A program made the position numbers and the translations under genes. Shown piece after piece: positions 34,981 to 48,438 of a DNA stretch of 64,000 nucleotides (positions within the stretch are counted from its first letter, which is position 1; each line of letters starts with the position of its first letter). The DNA is from a virus, in IMG/VR virus record IMGVR_UViG_3300020045_002218, positions 43,579 to 107,578 of that record; one strand, written 5' to 3'. The notes under the pieces were generated by a model. The model worked only from the letters and a program-made list of their open reading frames with translations, had not been told where the DNA came from and ran no database searches.

Positions 34981-35592
34981 ATGGATACTAATTACTCATG
35001 GTTTACACAGCCATCAACACGAAACAGAGGTTCTTCTAAACCTAATCCAGATGAAATATCTCTAATAGATTCTTTAAGTAGTTGGTTTCTAAATCCAGCA
35101 CAGAATAATAGAGGTATGTCTACACAAGAAGCTAATCAACAATATAATCCTCCATCAATTCAAAATGGTAAACTTGTAGCAGGAACTCCTATGGAAGGAT
35201 CTATTCCTCAATTACAACCTCAAATAGCTAATGCTTTTGATGGTGTAGCACAAATGAATTTAGATCATCAACAACTACAAAATACTAATGATCCTTTTTC
35301 TTCTCAAGCTTTAAAACAATTATCTCAACAAGAAATTACTCAAAGGTTATTTCCTAATTCACAAACACAACAACTTAAAACAAATATCTTAGGTGAACAA
35401 ATACCTATGAATCAATTACCTAAAGGTTCGGGTTATGTTAATGGTAAATTATTTGATTCTAACAAACAATCTCCTCAAGGAATGTTTACTGGATATAGTA
35501 AAGAAAGAGATGCTTCTTTAGATAGTTATGGTAAAGTAGATAAAAATTCTGATTTCTATAAAAGAAATAAAAAAGCTATGGAGAATCTGTAA
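34981..35592 (+). CDS. Putative ejection/internal virion protein
   Basis: Cys-free, Gln/Asn-rich, two genes upstream of vRNAP. Confidence 0.55.
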   Translation: MDTNYSWFTQPSTRNRGSSKPNPDEISLIDSLSSWFLNPAQNNRGMSTQEANQQYNPPSIQNGKLVAGTPMEGSIPQLQPQIANAFDGVAQMNLDHQQLQNTNDPFSSQALKQLSQQEITQRLFPNSQTQQLKTNILGEQIPMNQLPKGSGYVNGKLFDSNKQSPQGMFTGYSKERDASLDSYGKVDKNSDFYKRNKKAMENL

Positions 35593-36518
35593 TGAGAAGA
35601 AATAATGTAATTATGCAACCTTCAGCAATGCCTTTTACTACTCAACAACCTGAATATGTACAAGACTTAAGTCAAATATTTGCAGAACAAAATGCTAGAA
35701 ATCAACAAGCAAATGCTGTTAATAATAAAATAGATCAACAACAAAGAAGAGGTTCTGACTTAACTCAGTTAGATGAATTGATTGCTATTCAAGATAGGTA
35801 TAAAGCAAGAAAGAATGCTGAAATGCAAACACCTATGTATAAAGAAGATCAAGCTAAAGAATTAGCACAAGCTCTTCTAGGCACGAAACAGGTTGAGTCT
35901 ATGAGTTATGGTGGTAATCCCATTAAACAGTCTCCTGATGGAAAATATTGGCTTGAGAACGGACAGGAAGTAACTGACGTAGCAAACATTCAAACTAATA
36001 ATAAATATGATCCTATTACAGGATCATTAGAAGCTTTAAAATCTGGTAATCCTTTAGCTCTTCAAGCATTACAAGAACAAATGAAACCTAAAGCAGGTAT
36101 GGATTTAGCAGATAGAATGTTATTAGCACAACAACAAGCTAACTATAAAAAAGATATTGCGGATGCTAAACCAAAGAAAGATACTGATCTTAAGCCCAAA
36201 CAAATAGGGGATATGCTTACTAATCTTTTAGGTAAAAATCCTACAGATGAAGATAGAAGTATTTTAACTACACAACTCCAAAATGCAGATTCACCAGAAG
36301 CAAGAGATGCAATACTATCTGCTGCACAACAGTCAATAATAGAGCCATCATGGGGTAACAGTTTTAGAGGTGCATTAGCTGGAGCAGGTGTAGGTGGAGC
36401 AGCTACATTAGGAAATCCTTTAGGATTTTTAGGAGGAGGATTAATTGGAGCTACATTACCCTTAATGTCTAAAAGACACTTAAATCAAGATAAATTTACA
36501 CAAGCAATGAAGGAATAA
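35592..36518 (+). CDS. Putative ejection/internal virion protein (N4 gp51 position)
   Basis: Cys-free, Gln/Ala-rich, C-terminal glycine-zipper GALAGAGVGG...GGLIGA. Confidence 0.6.
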   Translation: MRRNNVIMQPSAMPFTTQQPEYVQDLSQIFAEQNARNQQANAVNNKIDQQQRRGSDLTQLDELIAIQDRYKARKNAEMQTPMYKEDQAKELAQALLGTKQVESMSYGGNPIKQSPDGKYWLENGQEVTDVANIQTNNKYDPITGSLEALKSGNPLALQALQEQMKPKAGMDLADRMLLAQQQANYKKDIADAKPKKDTDLKPKQIGDMLTNLLGKNPTDEDRSILTTQLQNADSPEARDAILSAAQQSIIEPSWGNSFRGALAGAGVGGAATLGNPLGFLGGGLIGATLPLMSKRHLNQDKFTQAMKE

Positions 36519-36519
36519 T

Positions 36520-39500
36520 ATGTCTTCTACATTTAGGGGTTCAACTTTTGATAGTTCTTCTTTTGATAACAATACTGACTTGGTACATCAAAAGAAAACA
36601 AGTCTATTAGATAAAGTATTTCAAAAGAGAACTGATTTAGGATTCAGTTCAGCTAATTTAAAGGATAGATCTGTAGAAGCATTGGATGCTGATACAGTTA
36701 GAATTAATCCTAGTGTAGCAGATAAAGCTTTTGATCCTATGGTTAAACCAGTAGATGTAAGACTTAAAAGTAATAACTTTGGTGAATCATTTAATGCTTT
36801 TGAGACTTCTCATGATAATGAAGATGATCCTGAAGTAGCTGCTAGATTACAAAAACAAAGAGATACTATTGATAATGAATGGACTCATGGTTGGTTTAAT
36901 CCAGCTACAAACCAAGATGTATATGATAGAGGTAATGCTAGTAAACAAGTATTAACAGATAAGCTTAAAACAGTCAATGAAGGTAAAACTGGATTAGACT
37001 TTGCTTTAGGTGAAAAAATTCAATTAGACAAATTTGGTAGACCATTAGGTGATATGAAATTCTCTAATGAGGATGTATCTGCTATTGATGCTATGAATAC
37101 TCCTGAGTTAAATGCTTCCTATAACACACCATATAACTTTGCTAAAGTAAACAAAGATGGTGGTGGATTAATAGATACAGCTAAAGACTTTGCAGGTACT
37201 CTTTTAACTAAAACACCTACCGTATTAGGTAACATAGCTGTTGGTACTCATGGTTTAGCTTCTGCAATGGTTAATGCACCTACACAGGCACTAGGAAATA
37301 TTGTAGGTGGTGATACTGGAGACAGCATTAAAAAGTTTGGTGATATAGCTAGTACCTATGAGTTACAAAATATTCTTCAAAATAGAACTCATTATGCTAA
37401 ACCTTTAGTAGATGCTTTACCTATATCGGATGAGGCAAAAGACACCTTAAACAATCTTAAATATGAACCAAATAGATTAGATGCTACTACTGATAAGCTA
37501 TATCAATCTGATGCTTTAGCTAAGTCAAGACAGGATTCTGAATACAGATCAAACCAAACACAAAGATTAAGGGATGAATTAGGGTATAAACCAAAAGGTG
37601 TATATGAGAGTGCTATGGCACTCTCTTCTGATGTAGTGGATTCATTACAGGCATTTGTAGAGAATCCTAGAGCAACACTTACACATGATTTACCTGCTAA
37701 CATAGCTCAATTAGCTGTACCTATTGGAGTTACAGGAAGAATTGTAGATAACATAGCTATGAAAATTGCATCTAAAACTTCTGGAGGAGTTGTTGATGGT
37801 GTAATTACCCAAGTAGGTAAAGATGCAGCAACTAAATATATTAGTTCTGCTCCTGTACAAAAACAGTTATTAGCTATAGGTGGTTTAACTGAAGGTACTC
37901 AAGCAGCATCTTCTATTGTAAATCAGGCAGAAGAAGCTAATGTATCTCCTAGTCAGTATTTAGCACCAGCTATTGTAGGAGGTGTTGTTACAGGTCTTAT
38001 TGGTACTGGTTCAAATAAATTACTTGGTGCTACAGCAGCAGATGCTCTAGTTGGTGTAAACAGAGTTAAAGGATCTGCATTTACTAAAGCTCTTAAAGCG
38101 TTTACATCAGAAGGGATAGTAGAAGAATTTCCACAATCGGTAAATGAACAGTTAGCTACAAATATTGCATTAGGAAAAGAAAATGTAATAGAAGGTGTAG
38201 GTCAAGCAGGTGGTTCAGGAGCTATTGTTGGTGGTCTATTAGGTGGAGGTATGCACACACCTATATTGTTACAGGATGTTCTACAAGCTCGAAAAACACC
38301 TTCAGTTGAACCAACATCCGTCTCAGAAGAGAAACCTTCTACAATCGAAGATTTGACACCTTCTAAGGTAGATATTAAAGCTTATGAAGATTCAGTTAAT
38401 AACATTACAGATGACAACAGACAAGAAGTTATAAACCAAGGTATTAAAGATTATCCTGTTGACGGTACTTTACCTGAAAAGATTCAAATGGCTGTAGCCA
38501 TTGGTAAAGCTAGAGATGGGTTTAATTCACCAGAGCATGATGCAATATATAGACAAATTAATGCAGAAATTCAATTACAGAATTTTGCTAAAGGAATGCC
38601 TAACTTCAATGATGTAATTTCTGATCCAAATACTTCAATTGAAGATATTCAAGATAATCTTATTACAGGTGCAGTAGATTCTACATCAGAGAATACTGGC
38701 TCATTATTTAATGATATTGGTAGAACTAAAGATGAGGATACATTAAATATTCTTAAAGATATTTCTATAGCTAAACAAAAAGAGTATGCTGAAAGTGATA
38801 CAGTAAATGATCCTTATGTATTAGTTACTACAGGTATTGAAACTAAAAACTTACCTAAAGAATCTTCTGAAGTATTCTCATCTATTACAAGGAATGAATA
38901 TACAGACTTAAATCAAGGATTAACTTTATTATCTAGTCATGTTAAATCAGCTACAACACCAGAACAAAAGAATACTGGTATATCAGCATTAACTAAAACT
39001 ATCTCTAAAGTATATTCAGATAAAGTAGATATTACTTCTGCTACAGAAAGATCAGTTAAACAAGCATTAAATACTATTAATGGTTTAGTTAATAACAAAG
39101 GTACTATTACTATTGAACCAAGTGATACATTAGAACAGATTCACAATAAGATATTACCTACATTTGGTTCAACTCCTATTAAAGGTAGTTCTAGTAATCC
39201 TAAAGCAAATGCTTTTATAAAAGCTACTAATAAAGTATTACAAGGCGCACAAACATTATCTAAATTCTTAACACAAAAATATGTAAATGATAAAACCACA
39301 GGTGAAGTACATCAAGAAATAATTGATGGTAAAGGTGAGAAATTAAGTGTACTAGACCATGCTACTATTATTTCTGGAAAGATTGCAGATACAAATTCTG
39401 ATGAAGAATCAGTAAATAGGGCATTTAATAGATTTACTAACTGGGTAGACTTTCATACACAAAAAGCAGAATTATCTACTGCACTAGGAGCTATTCCAGA

Positions 39501-42500
39501 ATCTAATAAGAAAGCTCAACAAATAATTGAAACAGCATTAGAAACTTTACAAGGACAAGATACTTTTAAAGAATTTAAGAGTAATCCAATTATATGGACT
39601 AAAGGATTATCTAGTTTAGCTGAGACAATGAATGCTGAAGTATTTTTCATGCAGAATACTCTTGATACTTTACAAGAATTAAAAGATGCTAGGTTTGGTT
39701 CTAAAAATACTGCTACACAAGTAACCTCTACTGCTGAAAGTATCTCTCAGACTGATGAGAATGCCCTAGATTTAACGAATGTAAATCAGGAAGATACTAT
39801 TGAAGAAATCAATATGGATGATATTCCTGAGAAATCAGTAACCTCTAAAGAATCTTCATTTAATGAAGAACAAGAAAAAATTTATCAAGATTATGAAGCT
39901 GAACAAGATTCACAACAACAAGCTCAAAATGAGCCTACAAGCAACGAAATAAGTAAATCTGAAGAAGTTATTACCTCAGAAAAGAAAGCTTCTGTAACAG
40001 TATCTACAGAGCTTACAGAGGTATCTTTGGATAATGAACAGACTCAAGATTTACTTGAAGTACCTTTACCACCTGAAGATACTAAAAATTATTCAGAGTT
40101 AATTAATAGAACGTATTTCCCCTTTAGTACAGAAGAACAACTTAAAAGTATTAGAATATTTTTCTTTGCTAATGCTCTAAAAAATAAGATACCTGAAGCA
40201 AAAGCTAGATTTTTGTACTTACAAGAGTTAGCTACAAATAATAAAGATACTATTAATGAGACATTTGATTTACCTATCTGGCGTTTTGATATTATAAGAC
40301 CATATTCTTTAACTCATAAATGGAAAGATGGTAAGTTAGTATCTAAAACTAGAGCAGTAATTACTTCCTTAATAGATAACACAAAGCAATTCTTTAGTGA
40401 TTTATTTAATATTAAAAATGATAATTTATTTAACAGAATTCCTAATTTATTGGAACATATCCAACAAAATAAATTAGTAAATAATGATAGCTTAGATGCA
40501 ATAGTTAAGTTTCATACTGATTTTGTTAAAACATTTGAAGCTAATATTAACCCTGAATTACTTAAAGAAAGTTTATCTGATAATGCTGCATCATCATTAT
40601 TTGTATATGATCCTAAAAAAGGTAAAACATACCTAGAACCAAATACTTTATTTGCTATGAGTCTTGGTTCAATACAGTTTTTACAAACAGCACTATCTAC
40701 GGTTTATAATGATGATGATGCTATTAGAAGTATTGTTGGTTTAAAAGAAGGTGACAACTTACCCGCTTATGTAAGAGATTTATTAAGTGATAAAGGTTCT
40801 GTAGCTAACATAATGAAGAATCAATTAGGAGCTTCTTTATCTAAGTTGTTAGGTGTAACATATAAACCAGATACTACATTACCTCAAATCGAAGGATTTG
40901 AAGCTTCATTAGGTGCTTATGCTTTAAGAACTCTTATTGATATAAAATTACTCGAAGAAACTCAAATTGAGAAATCTACTATTAATGCTATGAAGAATCA
41001 ACTTGAAGAAGGAACTCTTCCAGGAAACCAAAAGACACAAGATATAGTAAATAAACTTTACATTGGTGCAACAACCTTTGTAAGAGTAGCTGCACAAAAG
41101 AATATTGAAACAGGAAGACCTGAAGTAAAATCTGAAATTAAAGAACTACTTGAAGCTATTAAACCAGCAAGTAAAGAATTAGATGATTTACTTAATACAA
41201 CATTTTCAGAAGCATTACCTTCAGGTAGTAAAACTTCCTTGAAGGCTTTAAAAAAATGGTTAGGTAAAACTTGGCAAGGTTCTAATGCTGAATATACAGA
41301 AGCAGAATACAAAGCAATAAAGAAGTATAACGATACTGCATATACAGCAGAAACTAAAGCTATGAATGCTGCTTTAATATTAGATGAAGAATTTATTAAA
41401 CAAGTAGCTTTAGGTGAACAGTATACTGATGTAGTTCAAAAACATTTTGAAAAGACTAGAGCAGGTAAAGAATTACAAGCAGAGAATGAGTACAAGTATT
41501 TGATGGATTCCTTTGATGTATTTAAAGAACATGGTTCACTTTACTTCTTATCTAAGTTTTGGAAACAAGGAAGAGTAGGTATGGAGAAAGGACCGCAAAA
41601 CAGTAAAATGATGAGATGGTTATTTGCTCCTAAAGGTGTTGAATATGAAGTTAACTTATCTAACAAAGAATCCTCTAAATTCTTTAAATTAGCTGTTGTA
41701 GCAGCATTTGGTACAAAGATAGATCAAATATTAGATACAGCCTTAGATAAAGAATTTGATGCCTTACTGGTCAAATATAAAGATGTCCTAGAAGACTACT
41801 CTAAAACTAAAGGATATACAGAAAATGTAACACAAGAAATGAAAGATACTCTTCTTGATGCTATATATGCTGGTAAAGAAGGATTTCATAGTTATGCTGG
41901 ATTACTTGAATTAGCCCATTACAATGAGAATAAAGATAAAGGTAAATTTACTTCTCAGTTAATGAGAGAAGATGATGGTATTACTAATGGTCCAGCAATA
42001 GGATGGTTACTCTTTAATGGTGGAGATAATAAAAGAGTATTAGATGGATTTGCTATCTTTACAGATAGTCATGAAGATACATTTACTACTCACATGGCTA
42101 AAGAAGGTAGTGCAGATAATTACAATCTTATGGGTCAAAAAGCTAAAGAGAACCAAGTAATTGTTAATAATAAATTAGAAGAGTTAAACACTTACTTAAC
42201 AGAGAATCCAACTGTAAGATCTTCTATATTTAGAATTAAATATTATGATAAAAAGAACGGAACAGACTCTTTTAATGCTTGGTTCTATAAACAAGGTTTA
42301 GGGGATATGTTTGCTACAAATTCTTATGAGTTTGGTTTATTACTTAATGTTATTGAAGAATCTAAAACTCTTATAGATACCAACGAAGGTAAGAAGAAAG
42401 CTAATTATAAAGAGAATTTACAACCTACTCTAAATGCAATTCATTCTATGGTAGGGGAGTTAAATAGATCATTTGCTAAGATGCCTTTAATGACGCTTAT

Positions 42501-45500
42501 CTTTGGTTCGGGTATTAATAAGATTGCTAGTAATATTGGATATATTGCTATTGATTCTATGTATGAAAAGATTCAAAAGGTTATTAGAAGTAAACCAAAG
42601 AACCAAGAAGAAATAGATGCACAGAGAATATTACTTAAAGAAATAGAAGATAATATTATTGAGCTTACAGGATATGATATTCCTTTACCTTTAAACGAAG
42701 ATAAAGAAGAAGATGCTTCTCTTTATTCTAATTCTGTTGCAGAAGATTACGATTCAACATTAGCTGCATATTCTATTGAAGCTCTTAAGAATTTTAAATT
42801 ACCTATTTATGTAGAAAAGAAATTAGCTAAACAAATAGCTAATGTTTATGTACCTATTATTAGAGCTTCTGTTAATGCTAACTTTCAAACATTTATTGAT
42901 AACAGAAAAGCTATAAACCAAATATATGATATAGGTAATACTGTACTTAAAACACATATAGAACATGAAGTATCTCTTGTTCTTAAAGATGGTTTAACTA
43001 AACAGAAGTTATTAGATATTTTTGAGAAAGCAGTTAAGCTAATGCCTTCAATGAAAGTACCTAATTTTGATGGTACTGAGAGAGAAATATTCTATTGGAA
43101 TAAAGATGAATCTAGTTCTACTATGCCTGAATTTAAGGTACAAGTAAAACGTAAAAAGAATAAAGAAATACTGTCTTTTTCTTATTTAGATGATAACGGT
43201 GAGGTACATACAAGTAAACCAGTAATACTTAACAGTTCAACTGATACAGGTCATGCAGTAGGTATATTACTTGAAGCTATAGGTGTAAGAACACCTATTA
43301 TGACTATTCACTATACAGATTCTTTACCTGTTAAAGAAATAATGAACAGTAACTTAATATCTACTATGGTTCATGATGCTAGAATTGGTGCAGCAAATAC
43401 TTCTGATGAAGGAAGTTATTTGATGAATAAGAAGTTGCTTGAAAGCATTAATTTACTTAATCCATTTAAACAAGCAACAGATTATTTACAACAAGTATTT
43501 GATAACTTACCTAAAGGAGATTCTAAACTATCTAGTAAATTAAAAGATGCTTTAGAGAAACCTTTAAAAGAAGCATTTAAGAATAAACAAACTGTTCCTC
43601 ATGTACAACAAGGTAAAAGAAAGGTAAGTCCTTTAGTCTATAACAAAGAAAATTCAGGTAAACAATTTAAAGATTATTTAGGCTATTTAAATGAATGGGT
43701 GAAATACCAAACAGGTGTAAAAAATGAGATAGCTAAGTCTATTAAAGCATTTGGTAACTATGGTGGTAATGCTACATTTAAACCTCAAATGGTTGAAGCT
43801 GTTAAACAAGACAATTTCAGAGAATTAGTAGCAGAAGAGTTTAAAGATGTACTAAAGAATATCTCTTTAGGTAAAGGAAATAAACCGTTAAACGATATAA
43901 CAGATAAGCTTATAAATCTATATACACAAGTAAATGTTGTAGAAACACTGCAAGAGTTTATTAATAGAATAGATACTCTTGGTTTAACTATTGAGCAATT
44001 CAAACAACATCAAACCAATATTGAGAATAAAATATTAGGTACTTCTAAACAAGAAACTAAAACTAAACCAAATAAATCTAATAAAGAAGAAGTAACTAAT
44101 TCAACAACTCAAACTAATGGGGATAAATTAGTAATATTACCTATAGGTACTTCTGGTTCAGGTAAATCTACTTGGATTAAAAGTCTTAAAGGTGAGTATG
44201 TAATTATTTCTCCTGACGAAATGAGAGTTGAATTCACAGGAAGTATGGATGATAAGTCTCAAGATAAAGAAATTTATGAAGCTGTAAAACAAAGAACTAT
44301 TAAAGCTATAAATCAAGGCAAACAGGTAATTATTGATAGTACAAATCTTCAAAGAGATAGAAGAAGAGACTTTACTAATGCTATTTTACAAGCTATTCCT
44401 GATGCTAACGTTGTTTATAAATTACTTCCCTTAAATCCAGAATTAGCTAAACAAAGAATTAAAGCTCAAATAGATAAAGGTGAAAATAGAGCAAATGTTC
44501 CAGATAGTTCAATTGATAGACATGCGGAATTATATAAGGAAATGCTTAATGATATTAAAGATGAGCCTATAAAAGAATTCAAAGAACAAACCAATGAAGA
44601 TATTCCTTTTATTTTAACTAAAGATAAAGTACAAAAATTAAAAGAATTTCTAACTAAATACATAAACCAATCGTCTACATATTCTATAAAAGAGGTTCTT
44701 ACTTTAGTAAATACTAAAGCTCCAGACTTTAAAGATATGGATATTGTAAAGTATATGTATGGACAGTTACTGTCTACATATTATTCTGATACAAAACAAA
44801 AAGAAGATTTTGAAAAAGGTAATAATACTCCAGATCAATTTTATGCACATAAAAATTATTGGAATACTAGAAAAGAATATGGACTTAGATTAGTTAAAGA
44901 CAATCAGTCTGGTAAAGTAAAATTACAGAATATTAATAAACAACTTAATGAAAATAATAAACCTCTTGGTTCAACACCTGATGCTAAAGATTTACTTACC
45001 GATATAGAAGATTTAAAGAAAGATATTACTACTGAGAATATAGTATCTGAATTTGATGCTATGCCTAAAGGTGATGATGAAACACATAACACATTCTTAA
45101 GAAATTTTGTGTCTCAAGTAATAGCTCCAGTAGTAGAAGCAACTGAATTACTTCTGTTTAGTAAAGCTACATATACCTATGGACAGTATTCTGCTGAGTT
45201 AAAGAAAGTAGCTATTAACTTAGGTCAAGCATTACAAGAACAATACTCTCCATTTAAGATGTCTGCTCAAGAAGTATTTGCCCATGAATTCTCTCATGCT
45301 GTTACTTGGACTGCATATCAAATGCCTAAGAATGGTACCCTTAAAAGAAAGATTGATAGTTTATTTTATAATGTAAGAAGAGAGTTTAATAAAGCTAAAT
45401 TAATAGATACATCTTTAGCTAATTGGGATTATGTATTTAATAATGCTGATACTATAAAAGTAGATAATGCTCCTAATTCTTTAGGAGAAGTAACAACTAC

Positions 45501-48438
45501 TTCATACGACAGAGGTATTCAAGAGTTTATTGCTTTTGGTACTACTAACAAGGAATTTAGAAATCTAATTAAAAGACTTCAACCTAAACAATTAAAAGTA
45601 AATCAAGTATATGAAGGTACTGGTTCAGATGTAATTAAAGAAGCTTCTTGGTTAGAAACAATAACTAATATTTTTAAAAAAATATTAGATTCATTTATGA
45701 GAATAGCTAAAGGTAATGATTACCTTGAACCATTAACTCAGTTTGATACTAATGTAAGGCTTATATTAGCTGCTAATATAGATAAACCTTTTATTAATAT
45801 TACTGCTATTACAGATAAAGTAGAAGCTGAAGTAGCTAAAAAGACTAATGAAGGTTTTAAAAAAGGACTTAGAATCATTGCTAAAGGTAGAAATTCTAAA
45901 GTTCAAGCTATTAGAAGTGCCGCTAAATTAGCTGATGCTGTACCTGCTATTGGAGGATTTCAAACTAATCAAGTAGTAAGACAAACTCTTAAATTAATTA
46001 CTAATCCAACAGCTAGACAATTTGCTTTAGACTTAGTTAAAGATATTGCTGATGTAAATGAAAATAGTAAACCAATAACTAATACAACTATTCAGCAGAA
46101 GACAGCAGATGCTGATAGAAATAAAGCTACAGATTCTGATGAGAATAACTGGAGTAAACGAGTTACATTAAACCATGAACAAGATATAGCTTATAATAGT
46201 GTTCTTGTTAGAGGAGATTATGAGAGTCTTAATGATGCTTACGGTAATGATGCTATTAAGCTATTAAAGGATAAATCTTTTAGAGATAAAGAGATTAAAC
46301 TTATTGAAGATCAAATATATAACTTAAAAAGTAAAGCTCTTAACTTAGCTAATCTAATGGTTCATGGTAAGAATATGTTTAATGGTATGACAGAACATAA
46401 TGCTGTACTTATTGCTAAACAAGGTAGAAGTATCTCTCAAGATAAGTATCAAAAAGAAATAGATTTAGTAACTAAACTAAGCAGACTTTATGCTATTGGT
46501 TTACAGGATGAAAACCAAGTAAACCAAATAATATCTTTATTAGAAAGTAATTTTGATGGTATGAAACAAATGCTTAAAGTTCATAAAGAACTTAAGAAAC
46601 AGCAGTTATCTGAAATAGATGCTCTTACTGTTATTGATGGTAAAACTCATACGACATTAGATCCAAACAAAACAATATTTTTAGGTACTAAAGAAGATGA
46701 AAAACATTTAGTATCTGATTGGAAAGCTAAAGTAATAGGTAGATTAGAAAGAGATCCTAATGATCCATTATCTACTGAAGGTATTTTGTATTTAGTAGAT
46801 GTTAAAATGCAAAATGATTGGGATGCTAAAGCTATGGCTACTACTGATATTACACCTGGCTCAAGTAATTTTCAGTCTGGTATAGTTAAAACCGATAGAT
46901 TTAAAGCAGAAGAAAATAGAGAGAAAGCTAAACTTAAAGAAGATGGTACTAACACTAAAAATCATATATTTACAAGAAATAATTCTAATGTATCACGAGT
47001 AGCTATTCATAATGCTCAAGGTAAAATTATTAGATATGAATATATTCTTGATAGAGAAACACAAGAAAAATATCTTAATCCAAGAATAAATGTATTAAGG
47101 GACTTAGCTGCACAAAAGAATGGTACTGCATATAGAGCTAAAGCTTATGAGTTAAATCATAAGTTAGTGGATGCTCTTTTTGATTACTGGAAGAAATTAG
47201 GACATGATGCTAGAAAGGATATGATTTGGGTTGGTTCAGATAGTAAGTATAGTGATTTATATAACACTATTCCTACGGAAACTAAAGAATATATTACTAA
47301 AATATTTGGTACTAAAAATGGATTTTATATGGCAGAAGAAGAACTGCGAGAAGTATTTGGATACAGAAAACAATCTATAACTAATTGGATTCAACCTGTA
47401 CAAGCTGATAATTTGAAAAAAACTATAGGAAACATGATCTATGAGCAAGCTAAAAGATTTGGTTTAAACCAAGCTAATATTAAAGCTATAGAAACTATGT
47501 GGATTGAAGGTATAGCAATAGCTAAAGATACTATTGTTGTTAAATCTGGTGTTGTATCAGCAGCTAATGAATCAAGTAACTTTATGACTGCTAAGTTAGC
47601 TGGTGTTCCTATTGGATTCTATTATAAAAATAAAATATCTGCTATGAAAGCAGAACAGGAATACAGAAGAAATTCTCATGCTTACTTATCTCATTTAAGT
47701 AATGCTTATGGTAATCCAGAATATATTACTAAAGAGATAGCTCAAGAAATGAGTATTCTTGAATCTGCATTATCAACTAATGAAATGAGTTATTTACATG
47801 ATGAAGGATTAGCTTCAACAGTAGCTGAAGAAGGTTCTTATAAAGATAAACATCAAACCATGTTATTTAATAAAACTGAGAGAGCTAGAAACATATTTGA
47901 TAAATTACCTAAAGTAGTTAAAGATACTCTTAAAATAGCATCAATATCTGAAGGTACTAAGATATATAAACTATTAGATGAGATAGCTCAAATGGGTGAT
48001 ATTACATCACGTCATGTATTAGTTAAATGGGAAGAAGAGAAAGCTAGACAACAAGGTAAAGAGTTTGATAAGAATAAAGCTATAGACTTATCTAAATTCT
48101 TATTTATCCAATATCACACAGTTACTAATGACTTGGTTCAATATGGTAATGATATTGGTTTGTTAATGTTTACTAAATTTGCTGTTAAGACACTCAAAGT
48201 CTTAACTTATATGGTAGGACAACACCCTGCTAGATTATTAGCACTAGGTATCTTTGAAGAGTTATTTGCTACTACAGAGTGGATATGGCATACAAGTATG
48301 AATAAGTTAGCTAATCCAATTACATCTGCTTTAGCTACTATTGATGCAAATCCAATAGTAAACTTATTAGTAACTCCTCCTGCTTATATGCCACAAGAAG
48401 TATTAGGGGCATTAAGTACACTTCCATTAGTACCATAG
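36520..48438 (+). CDS. Virion-encapsidated RNA polymerase (N4 gp50-like), multidomain
   Basis: 3972 aa, no Cys seen; motif A EDDGITNG (~41970), motif B RSFAKMPLMTLIFG (~42466), motif C VHDA (~43370), zincin HEFSH (~45283) with EFIAFG, AKD.IVVKS, Y.ND.GL.MFTKF. Confidence 0.95.
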   Translation: MSSTFRGSTFDSSSFDNNTDLVHQKKTSLLDKVFQKRTDLGFSSANLKDRSVEALDADTVRINPSVADKAFDPMVKPVDVRLKSNNFGESFNAFETSHDNEDDPEVAARLQKQRDTIDNEWTHGWFNPATNQDVYDRGNASKQVLTDKLKTVNEGKTGLDFALGEKIQLDKFGRPLGDMKFSNEDVSAIDAMNTPELNASYNTPYNFAKVNKDGGGLIDTAKDFAGTLLTKTPTVLGNIAVGTHGLASAMVNAPTQALGNIVGGDTGDSIKKFGDIASTYELQNILQNRTHYAKPLVDALPISDEAKDTLNNLKYEPNRLDATTDKLYQSDALAKSRQDSEYRSNQTQRLRDELGYKPKGVYESAMALSSDVVDSLQAFVENPRATLTHDLPANIAQLAVPIGVTGRIVDNIAMKIASKTSGGVVDGVITQVGKDAATKYISSAPVQKQLLAIGGLTEGTQAASSIVNQAEEANVSPSQYLAPAIVGGVVTGLIGTGSNKLLGATAADALVGVNRVKGSAFTKALKAFTSEGIVEEFPQSVNEQLATNIALGKENVIEGVGQAGGSGAIVGGLLGGGMHTPILLQDVLQARKTPSVEPTSVSEEKPSTIEDLTPSKVDIKAYEDSVNNITDDNRQEVINQGIKDYPVDGTLPEKIQMAVAIGKARDGFNSPEHDAIYRQINAEIQLQNFAKGMPNFNDVISDPNTSIEDIQDNLITGAVDSTSENTGSLFNDIGRTKDEDTLNILKDISIAKQKEYAESDTVNDPYVLVTTGIETKNLPKESSEVFSSITRNEYTDLNQGLTLLSSHVKSATTPEQKNTGISALTKTISKVYSDKVDITSATERSVKQALNTINGLVNNKGTITIEPSDTLEQIHNKILPTFGSTPIKGSSSNPKANAFIKATNKVLQGAQTLSKFLTQKYVNDKTTGEVHQEIIDGKGEKLSVLDHATIISGKIADTNSDEESVNRAFNRFTNWVDFHTQKAELSTALGAIPESNKKAQQIIETALETLQGQDTFKEFKSNPIIWTKGLSSLAETMNAEVFFMQNTLDTLQELKDARFGSKNTATQVTSTAESISQTDENALDLTNVNQEDTIEEINMDDIPEKSVTSKESSFNEEQEKIYQDYEAEQDSQQQAQNEPTSNEISKSEEVITSEKKASVTVSTELTEVSLDNEQTQDLLEVPLPPEDTKNYSELINRTYFPFSTEEQLKSIRIFFFANALKNKIPEAKARFLYLQELATNNKDTINETFDLPIWRFDIIRPYSLTHKWKDGKLVSKTRAVITSLIDNTKQFFSDLFNIKNDNLFNRIPNLLEHIQQNKLVNNDSLDAIVKFHTDFVKTFEANINPELLKESLSDNAASSLFVYDPKKGKTYLEPNTLFAMSLGSIQFLQTALSTVYNDDDAIRSIVGLKEGDNLPAYVRDLLSDKGSVANIMKNQLGASLSKLLGVTYKPDTTLPQIEGFEASLGAYALRTLIDIKLLEETQIEKSTINAMKNQLEEGTLPGNQKTQDIVNKLYIGATTFVRVAAQKNIETGRPEVKSEIKELLEAIKPASKELDDLLNTTFSEALPSGSKTSLKALKKWLGKTWQGSNAEYTEAEYKAIKKYNDTAYTAETKAMNAALILDEEFIKQVALGEQYTDVVQKHFEKTRAGKELQAENEYKYLMDSFDVFKEHGSLYFLSKFWKQGRVGMEKGPQNSKMMRWLFAPKGVEYEVNLSNKESSKFFKLAVVAAFGTKIDQILDTALDKEFDALLVKYKDVLEDYSKTKGYTENVTQEMKDTLLDAIYAGKEGFHSYAGLLELAHYNENKDKGKFTSQLMREDDGITNGPAIGWLLFNGGDNKRVLDGFAIFTDSHEDTFTTHMAKEGSADNYNLMGQKAKENQVIVNNKLEELNTYLTENPTVRSSIFRIKYYDKKNGTDSFNAWFYKQGLGDMFATNSYEFGLLLNVIEESKTLIDTNEGKKKANYKENLQPTLNAIHSMVGELNRSFAKMPLMTLIFGSGINKIASNIGYIAIDSMYEKIQKVIRSKPKNQEEIDAQRILLKEIEDNIIELTGYDIPLPLNEDKEEDASLYSNSVAEDYDSTLAAYSIEALKNFKLPIYVEKKLAKQIANVYVPIIRASVNANFQTFIDNRKAINQIYDIGNTVLKTHIEHEVSLVLKDGLTKQKLLDIFEKAVKLMPSMKVPNFDGTEREIFYWNKDESSSTMPEFKVQVKRKKNKEILSFSYLDDNGEVHTSKPVILNSSTDTGHAVGILLEAIGVRTPIMTIHYTDSLPVKEIMNSNLISTMVHDARIGAANTSDEGSYLMNKKLLESINLLNPFKQATDYLQQVFDNLPKGDSKLSSKLKDALEKPLKEAFKNKQTVPHVQQGKRKVSPLVYNKENSGKQFKDYLGYLNEWVKYQTGVKNEIAKSIKAFGNYGGNATFKPQMVEAVKQDNFRELVAEEFKDVLKNISLGKGNKPLNDITDKLINLYTQVNVVETLQEFINRIDTLGLTIEQFKQHQTNIENKILGTSKQETKTKPNKSNKEEVTNSTTQTNGDKLVILPIGTSGSGKSTWIKSLKGEYVIISPDEMRVEFTGSMDDKSQDKEIYEAVKQRTIKAINQGKQVIIDSTNLQRDRRRDFTNAILQAIPDANVVYKLLPLNPELAKQRIKAQIDKGENRANVPDSSIDRHAELYKEMLNDIKDEPIKEFKEQTNEDIPFILTKDKVQKLKEFLTKYINQSSTYSIKEVLTLVNTKAPDFKDMDIVKYMYGQLLSTYYSDTKQKEDFEKGNNTPDQFYAHKNYWNTRKEYGLRLVKDNQSGKVKLQNINKQLNENNKPLGSTPDAKDLLTDIEDLKKDITTENIVSEFDAMPKGDDETHNTFLRNFVSQVIAPVVEATELLLFSKATYTYGQYSAELKKVAINLGQALQEQYSPFKMSAQEVFAHEFSHAVTWTAYQMPKNGTLKRKIDSLFYNVRREFNKAKLIDTSLANWDYVFNNADTIKVDNAPNSLGEVTTTSYDRGIQEFIAFGTTNKEFRNLIKRLQPKQLKVNQVYEGTGSDVIKEASWLETITNIFKKILDSFMRIAKGNDYLEPLTQFDTNVRLILAANIDKPFINITAITDKVEAEVAKKTNEGFKKGLRIIAKGRNSKVQAIRSAAKLADAVPAIGGFQTNQVVRQTLKLITNPTARQFALDLVKDIADVNENSKPITNTTIQQKTADADRNKATDSDENNWSKRVTLNHEQDIAYNSVLVRGDYESLNDAYGNDAIKLLKDKSFRDKEIKLIEDQIYNLKSKALNLANLMVHGKNMFNGMTEHNAVLIAKQGRSISQDKYQKEIDLVTKLSRLYAIGLQDENQVNQIISLLESNFDGMKQMLKVHKELKKQQLSEIDALTVIDGKTHTTLDPNKTIFLGTKEDEKHLVSDWKAKVIGRLERDPNDPLSTEGILYLVDVKMQNDWDAKAMATTDITPGSSNFQSGIVKTDRFKAEENREKAKLKEDGTNTKNHIFTRNNSNVSRVAIHNAQGKIIRYEYILDRETQEKYLNPRINVLRDLAAQKNGTAYRAKAYELNHKLVDALFDYWKKLGHDARKDMIWVGSDSKYSDLYNTIPTETKEYITKIFGTKNGFYMAEEELREVFGYRKQSITNWIQPVQADNLKKTIGNMIYEQAKRFGLNQANIKAIETMWIEGIAIAKDTIVVKSGVVSAANESSNFMTAKLAGVPIGFYYKNKISAMKAEQEYRRNSHAYLSHLSNAYGNPEYITKEIAQEMSILESALSTNEMSYLHDEGLASTVAEEGSYKDKHQTMLFNKTERARNIFDKLPKVVKDTLKIASISEGTKIYKLLDEIAQMGDITSRHVLVKWEEEKARQQGKEFDKNKAIDLSKFLFIQYHTVTNDLVQYGNDIGLLMFTKFAVKTLKVLTYMVGQHPARLLALGIFEELFATTEWIWHTSMNKLANPITSALATIDANPIVNLLVTPPAYMPQEVLGALSTLPLVP

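Follow-up and report, generated by a model that had tools for sequence, protein, structure and literature searches.

The window analysed here is a stretch of 64,000 nucleotides of viral DNA (positions 43,579 to 107,578 of the IMG/VR record IMGVR_UViG_3300020045_002218), to which all coordinates below refer. It has a GC content of ~30% and comprises the structural module of an N4-like phage of the schitovirus type. Genes for the terminase, the portal and the major head protein lie on the + strand, upstream of the gene for a virion RNA polymerase (vRNAP). The closest cultured major capsid proteins are those of marine Alteromonas, Vibrio and Pseudoalteromonas N4-like phages, at 44-48% identity. 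The vRNAP gene, the last of the structural operon, was recognised in the list of open reading frames (ORFs) by its matches to phrog_2206, ‘virion RNA polymerase’ (E 6.4e-209, residues 173-3949), and to the Pfam family PF21894 (N4_RNAP_helical). Its start at 36520 is considered sound because the ATG directly follows the stop of the preceding ORF and the N-terminus is kept in six full-length homologues. The subject of this work is the N-terminal head of this 3972-aa protein, which resembles a staphylococcal nuclease (SNase, thermonuclease). The gene and the parts of its head are as follows.

36520..48438, + strand: gene for the virion RNA polymerase, 3972 aa
36520..36651, + strand: N-terminal leader, residues 1-44, outside the SNase fold, with a basic helix at 19-39 predicted from AlphaFold2 secondary structure
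36652..37134, + strand: SNase-like domain, residues 45-205, of probable oligonucleotide/oligosaccharide-binding (OB) fold, delimited by the profile and structure comparisons given below
36682..36696, + strand: LDADT, residues 55-59, matching D19-G-D21-T22 of SNase and falling, in the alignment, on the DGDT that is invariant in 45 SNases
36757..36765, + strand: VRL, residues 80-82, with R81 as the R35 equivalent, aligned to the invariant R-L of SNases
36790..36807, + strand: FNAFET, residues 91-96, with N92 and E95, probable equivalent of I-D40-A-P-E43 by spacing and conservation
36808..36921, + strand: conserved insert of ~38 residues, 97-134, including HGWFNPATNQDV, standing where SNases have the omega loop (a gap against SNases in the hhalign comparison)
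36922..36978, + strand: helix alpha-1 equivalent, residues 135-153 (YDRGNASKQVL...), aligned to the SNase G-x-x-A-x-x-x-L helix
37027..37050, + strand: DKFGRPLG, residues 170-177, equivalent of D83-K-Y-G-R87, aligned to D-R-Y-G-R in all comparisons

A sequence-only reading of the window had placed a SNase-like domain at residues 47-197 of the ORF (36660-37110) on the strength of five short strings in SNase order. Translation of 36520-37719 confirms these at the vRNAP N-terminus, with VEALDADTVRI at residues 52-62, VRL at 80-82, FNAFET at 91-96, GNASKQVL at 138-145 and DKFGRPLG at 170-177. The order of motifs is that of the SNase family (PF00565; S. aureus Nuc, 1sta), namely D-x-D-T, R-L, [DN]-A-x-E, the G-x-x-A-x-x-x-L helix and D-x-x-x-R. 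The module differs from SNases in having six additional residues between the equivalents of Arg35 and Asp40 (KSNNFG, residues 83-88, ahead of FNAFET), the 38-residue insert and a reduced third helix, and, unlike the small secreted SNase, it has no signal peptide and forms the N-terminus of a giant virion protein. Both the leader and the insert contain positions that are invariant in eight relatives (K25, K26, S28, L29, L30, V33, K36 and R37 in the former; H98, G124-N127, A129-N131, D133 and V134 in the latter).

Relatives of the module are few. Word-indexed searching of 5.8 billion proteins yielded six, all of them vRNAPs of 3642-4267 aa from uncultured sources. An exhaustive phmmer search with residues 30-200 against 1.84 billion representatives gave five matches, comprising four full-length vRNAPs and a 443-aa protein (P0009, 46% identity) that is probably a vRNAP fragment, and returned no SNase and no clearly free-standing module. 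Searches by tblastn with residues 1-250 and 173-600 found no match among 50,697 GenBank phages, and DNA copies of the module were absent from two metagenome scans, with one locus (L001) found in a viral scan. These searches place the module in just one small clade, that of vRNAPs from uncultured marine N4-like phages. In the relatives P0003-P0007 the head shows 78-86% identity to the window protein, whereas the RNAP core shows 23-26% (except P0006, 91%) and residues 206-600 show 22-31% (except P0003, 89%). This indicates that the head is the most constant piece of these mosaic giants, through strong constraint or modular exchange, and would fit an enzyme or a docking interface. The mosaicism of the clade is itself pronounced: across P0003-P0008 the identity of individual segments to the window protein ranges from ~20% to >90% in a pattern that differs with each relative, P0006 for instance sharing 91-93% of the RNAP core and just 27% of residues 206-600, and P0003 showing the opposite.

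One line of evidence for the assignment to the SNases is profile-profile comparison. Searches of PHROGs and Pfam with the first 250 residues found no family, the PHROG vRNAP profile covering nothing in the first 172; phmmer against the PDB (E<=10) gave zero matches with the module, and a feature search of the ESM Atlas gave nothing usable. For comparison, SNase genes were picked from bacterial genomes by a degenerate DNA pattern for DGDT...GIDAPE and their ORFs extracted, 102 being used; 44 of 45 sampled members (alignment A4) match PF00565. Comparison by hhalign of an 8-member alignment of the vRNAP N-termini with the 102 SNases gave a match over query residues 38-185 with a Prob of 94.2, an E of 1.2e-7 and a score of 53.0. 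The reversed alignment scored 18.1, 30 column shuffles scored at most 17.8, and 30 shuffles of 8-column blocks, which keep the motifs and scramble their order, scored at most 30.6. Because the score far exceeds those of all three controls, the order of the motifs and the regions between them contribute to the match. It was also seen that the block of helix alpha-1, strand beta-4 and D-x-x-x-R aligns independently of the pattern by which the set was selected. Comparison of a full-length alignment (A2) with the 45 sampled SNases gave an E of 1.4e-4 and a Prob of 52.6, and a two-sequence profile (A3) was too thin for this comparison. In a search of 100 bacterial SNases with a hidden Markov model (HMM) of the module, five of the six best scorers (L013, L042, L017, L079 and L065) came from Pelagibacteraceae genomes. 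This bias may just reflect a common AT-rich composition, but could also point to the lineage from which the module came or which the phage, with its 30% GC, infects.

Further evidence came from structure prediction. Two AlphaFold2 models, of residues 1-250 and 36-210, were built from the 8-sequence alignment and share a core, with block means of the predicted local distance difference test (pLDDT) of ~65-89, that consists of strands at 52-56, 59-62 and 78-82, a helix at 131-153 and strands at 159-163 and 175-181; the alpha-1 equivalent reaches a pLDDT of 83-89. At moderate confidence, this predicted core corresponds to the five-stranded OB barrel with flanking helices of the SNases. When the models were compared with 48,161 representative chains by VIA-align, independently of Foldseek, SNase itself (1sta_A) ranked first with both, at a Z of 6.5 for residues 1-250 (rmsd 3.7, 100 aligned, 17% identity; model residues 42-202 pairing with residues 7-141 of 1sta_A) and of 7.1 for residues 36-210 (rmsd 4.5, 105 aligned, 19% identity). 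Ranks 2-15 were taken by the SN-like domains of Tudor-SN and extended-Tudor proteins, after which Z fell to 3.4, and other OB folds (SSB, RPA and toxin B subunits) had a Z of at most 4.0. A Foldseek search of the PDB returned SNase variants in all of its top 50 places (E ~1.5e-2, probability 0.9-1.0), and one of BFVD returned viral SNase/TNase-like proteins in all of its top 18 (best E 3.4e-4). The SNase-like domain of the sequence-only reading, which the Pfam search misses, is thus borne out by a significant profile-profile match and by SNase or SN-like domains as the best matches in three structure libraries with two models. Since the sequence profile, the structure libraries and the prior prediction agree, each number being modest on its own, it is very likely that residues ~45-205 are a very diverged member of the SNase OB-fold superfamily, in fold and by homology.

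The conservation of the active site bears on what such a domain might do. In SNase itself, Asp21, Asp40 and the backbone of Thr41 hold the metal, Arg35, Glu43 and Arg87 are catalytic, and DNA and RNA are hydrolysed to 3'-phosphate products in a reaction that needs a divalent cation. The residues D56, D58 and T59 (equivalents of D19, D21 and T22) do not vary among the eight relatives, the most distant of which has 46% identity, and the same is true of R81 (R35), D170 (D83) and R174 (R87), R81 and R174 being aligned on every hhalign path. D58 is accordingly a predicted metal ligand and R174 a predicted phosphate-binding arginine, and the earlier statement that both arginines and the D-x-D are kept holds in all eight. 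E95 and Y201 are likewise invariant in all eight; the equivalence of E95 to E43 rests on spacing and conservation, and Y201 is possibly one of the nucleotide-binding tyrosines of SNase. At the position of D40 most members have an asparagine (N92). Asparagine is able to bind metal through its carbonyl oxygen. Because of this, and because some homologues of SNase, such as MAG_5040, work with Mg2+ in place of Ca2+ (PMC3585158), a metal-dependent nuclease activity of the head is plausible on the sequence, with the chances that catalysis has been retained about evenly balanced. Overall, we favour the reading that the diverged SNase head is a metal-dependent phosphodiesterase delivered with the polymerase, to which we give a probability of roughly 55%.

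Several observations weigh against this reading. With PF00565 no match was found at E<=10 in the 3972-aa protein, in its first 250 residues or in the relatives P0005, P0008 and P0009, and the window vRNAP does not reach the gathering score of the family (21 bits). Scored with an HMM of the 102 SNases, P0009 reached 17.9 bits, spread over two colinear blocks, and the window protein just 4.0 bits, which explains why Pfam misses the module; unlike known SNases, the module lies below every single-sequence or HMM threshold. The models are of moderate confidence, with a mean pLDDT of 56 for residues 1-250 and of 65 for residues 36-210 (predicted template modelling score, pTM, 0.62). The insert has a low pLDDT in both, and values of <50 are found around the D40/E43 loop and around the insert, which lies beside the predicted active site. 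The structural statistics are modest also, a Foldseek E of ~1e-2 being found in the PDB and a Z of 6.5-7.1 being rated ‘middling’ by VIA-align. Furthermore, a non-specific nuclease packed beside a 30% GC genome would be hazardous, and both the catalysis and the packaging of the head are deduced from sequence and by analogy. The high conservation of the head could be explained equally by a docking role.

The alignment of the D40/E43 motif is a further difficulty, being ambiguous. The path chosen by hhalign pairs N86 and P104-E105 with the motif, and when the two mappings were compared directly, looping out residues 83-88 (which maps N92 and E95) raised the score to 56.1 and looping out residues 88-103 (which maps N86 and E105) raised it about equally, to 58.8. 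The mapping through N86 and P104-E105 was provisionally set aside since E105 is a lysine in three relatives, whereas E95 is invariant, although it scores as well as the other. The mapping through N92 and E95 is also preferred because without KSNNFG the spacing is exactly that of R-L-x-G-I-D-A-P-E, and because the alternative splits the tight D40-E43 turn by 16 residues. The claim that the glutamate is kept therefore stands as regards the invariance of E95, but its pairing with E43 is not unique. Similarly, the suggestion that the D40 equivalent is an asparagine is true of seven of the eight relatives; the most distant, P0009, has an aspartate there together with a canonical LDGDT. An asparagine at this position in most of the family could weaken metal binding, and the altered or binding-only activity suggested in the sequence-only reading is possible.

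The position of the head suggests how it might be delivered. Downstream of it lies a series of segments detected in a Kyte-Doolittle scan:

37189..38283, + strand: Gly/Ala-rich, weakly hydrophobic segments at residues 224-253, 391-417, 475-507 and 556-588

These probably form the region of the vRNAP N-terminal domain (NTD) that interacts with the membrane, by analogy with coliphage N4, in which membrane-spanning helices are predicted at 224-278 of the NTD of gp50, insertion into nanodiscs has been observed, and the membrane-spanning part is proposed to build the inner-membrane complex of the ejectosome (PMC13434306). The vRNAP is ejected in both N4 and DEV, the NTD being located at the inner membrane, and during ejection the N4 NTD interacts with gp51 (PMC13434306). 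By the same analogy, the window vRNAP would be carried in the virion and enter the host by ejection. With the Gly-rich segments as counterparts of the membrane-spanning region in the N4 NTD, the head would reach the envelope among the first ejected proteins.

On the favoured reading, a SNase-like head was added N-terminally, ahead of the membrane-interacting part of the NTD, in one small clade. This putative metal-dependent phosphodiesterase would travel through the tail with the polymerase at infection and, on reaching the cell envelope or the space immediately beneath it, could cut DNA or RNA of the host or of competitors. The polymerase would then count among the ‘polyvalent’ effector proteins as Iyer et al. 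(2017) define them. In T4, SNase placed inside filled heads has been shown to break down the DNA packaged there (PMC7697877), and a natural encapsidated SNase must therefore stay silent until ejection. Silencing in the virion might be achieved by an unfolded, beads-on-a-string state, by autoinhibition through the insert or by an altered metal requirement resulting from Asn92, and the head would be switched on only after ejection.

The alternative that survives best is that the domain retains the SNase fold but has lost the ability to cut. It might clamp nucleic acid at the channel exit, for example the leading DNA end or single-stranded promoter DNA, or provide a docking site for the other ejection proteins or for the tail channel. 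This is possible, and we consider it somewhat doubtful. The D40 ligand is replaced in seven of the eight relatives, as described above, the equivalents of K84 and Y85 are not conserved, and the six-residue stretch and the 38-residue insert disrupt the poorly modelled region of the catalytic loop. Non-catalytic SN-like scaffolds occupy ranks 2-15 among the structural neighbours; in the eukaryotic Tudor-SN and extended Tudor proteins, domains of this kind serve as binding scaffolds. High conservation across mosaic polymerases would fit an interface with conserved virion partners, as would the interaction of the N4 NTD with gp51, and such a module would avoid the danger of an active nuclease in a DNA-filled capsid (PMC7697877). 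However, at 46-58% overall identity there is no change in D56, D58, T59, R81, E95, D170 or R174, residues that inactivated SN-like domains normally lose. The D40 position toggles solely between asparagine and aspartate, both capable of binding metal, and the top structural match, with the highest identity (17-19%), is SNase itself and not the scaffolds.

That there is no homology at all, and that chance motifs lie on a generic OB fold or on another fold with unreliable models, is very improbable: the want of Pfam, PHROG, PDB-sequence and Atlas matches, the shallow alignment of eight sequences with its moderate pLDDT and modest Z and Foldseek values, and a comparison set whose selection pattern sharpens the very motifs at issue would all agree with it, but the hhalign score stands well above every control, the helix alpha-1/beta-4/D-x-x-x-R block aligns apart from that pattern, two programs place SNase-type structures first in three libraries and ahead of other OB folds (Z<=4), and the family was predicted from sequence before any of these tests.

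A more far-reaching version of the phosphodiesterase reading can also be formulated, in which SNase-type heads would be a type of cargo that recurs on the ejection proteins of podoviruses and has so far gone undescribed, represented here by a metal-gated nuclease at the entry port. The head, being N-terminal to the membrane-spanning segments, could lie on the periplasmic side of the ejectosome, where Ca2+ at seawater level would activate it only after ejection, and it could then degrade incoming DNA, such as that of superinfecting phages, or process the end of the phage's own DNA. We regard this version as unlikely.

Comparison with known systems places the domain architecture among the polyvalent N4-like vRNAPs (PMC5512222), as the window protein likewise joins an N4-type RNAP, an HExxH motif and extra effector-type domains among late structural genes. 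The extra domains described on RNAP-bearing polyvalent proteins are a metallopeptidase (MPTase), an ADP-ribosyltransferase (ART), a lysozyme/transglycosylase and a PBECR RNase, and the sole DNase discussed for polyvalent proteins is ParB-like (PMC5512222). The terms ‘SNase’ and ‘staphylococcal nuclease’ are absent from that paper, and none of the papers listed by a literature search pairs a vRNAP term with a SNase term. The NTD of N4 gp50 occupies the same position as the window head, upstream of membrane-interacting segments; unlike the window head, it has two predicted helical subdomains, and no nuclease fold is mentioned for it (PMC13434306). The SNase fold is commonly used by phages, and the best viral structural matches are stand-alone SNase/TNase-like phage proteins such as the endonuclease of Synechococcus phage S-RIM2 (BFVD M4PY29). 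These are small free proteins, whereas the window module is the head of a giant that would be ejected, and no canonical SNase fused to a giant phage protein was found in the best 80 viral SNase loci, all of which are free genes with ORFs of at most 388 aa. What is new is thus the domain architecture and the very diverged subfamily, the SNase fold and the polyvalent vRNAP being already known.

The remainder of the polymerase carries a further feature found by motif scan:

45283..45297, + strand: HEFSH zincin-type motif, residues 2922-2926

An HExxH motif is present at a comparable position in all six homologues scanned, and HEFSH is a candidate processing peptidase of the polyvalent protein, which fits the presence of a metallopeptidase on all N4-type RNAPs reported by Iyer et al. 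(2017; PMC5512222). After the polymerase core, at 44131-44535 (residues 2538-2672), there is an AAA_33/polynucleotide kinase (PNK)-like P-loop domain (Pfam E 3e-18; phrog_505 E 3e-13). Among seven related vRNAPs this kinase-like insert occurs in the window protein alone, and P0005 has DUF7831 (residues 2598-2714) at about the same place; this position looks like a variable cargo slot. A functional coupling of the SNase head with the PNK-like insert was considered and is unsupported, as P0003-P0008 share the head and are without the kinase. In the core itself, RNAP motif B was located by regular expression at 42466-42507 (residues 1983-1996) as R-x3-K-x7-F-G, with a phenylalanine at the position of the T7-type tyrosine. 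In T7-type RNAPs this tyrosine discriminates rNTPs from dNTPs. Directly upstream of the vRNAP gene, at 34981-36518, two ORFs of 203 and 308 aa have no PHROG family and could, by position, be the counterparts of the N4 ejection proteins gp51 and gp52; the 1011-aa ORF preceding them has as its sole PHROG match a family of unknown function. Related contigs measure 72-78 kb and the contig of the window 107,578 bp; the latter may exceed one genome length or combine two related phages.

The NTD is the least understood part of the N4-type virion polymerases and was not resolved in either of the two cryo-EM studies of 2026. The module described here also illustrates how far a family can diverge beyond detection by Pfam, and the ~80% conservation of the head set against ~25% identity in the core points to strong selection or modular exchange. 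Being small (~160 residues), at the extreme N-terminus and easy to express, it is directly testable. Its presence raises the question of how a non-specific nuclease would stay silent beside packaged AT-rich DNA and then be released at infection. A nuclease-fold head would be a new type of injected cargo beside the known peptidase, ART, lysozyme and RNase, and what enters the cell along with the phage DNA probably includes a nuclease, or else a clamp for nucleic acids that evolved from one.

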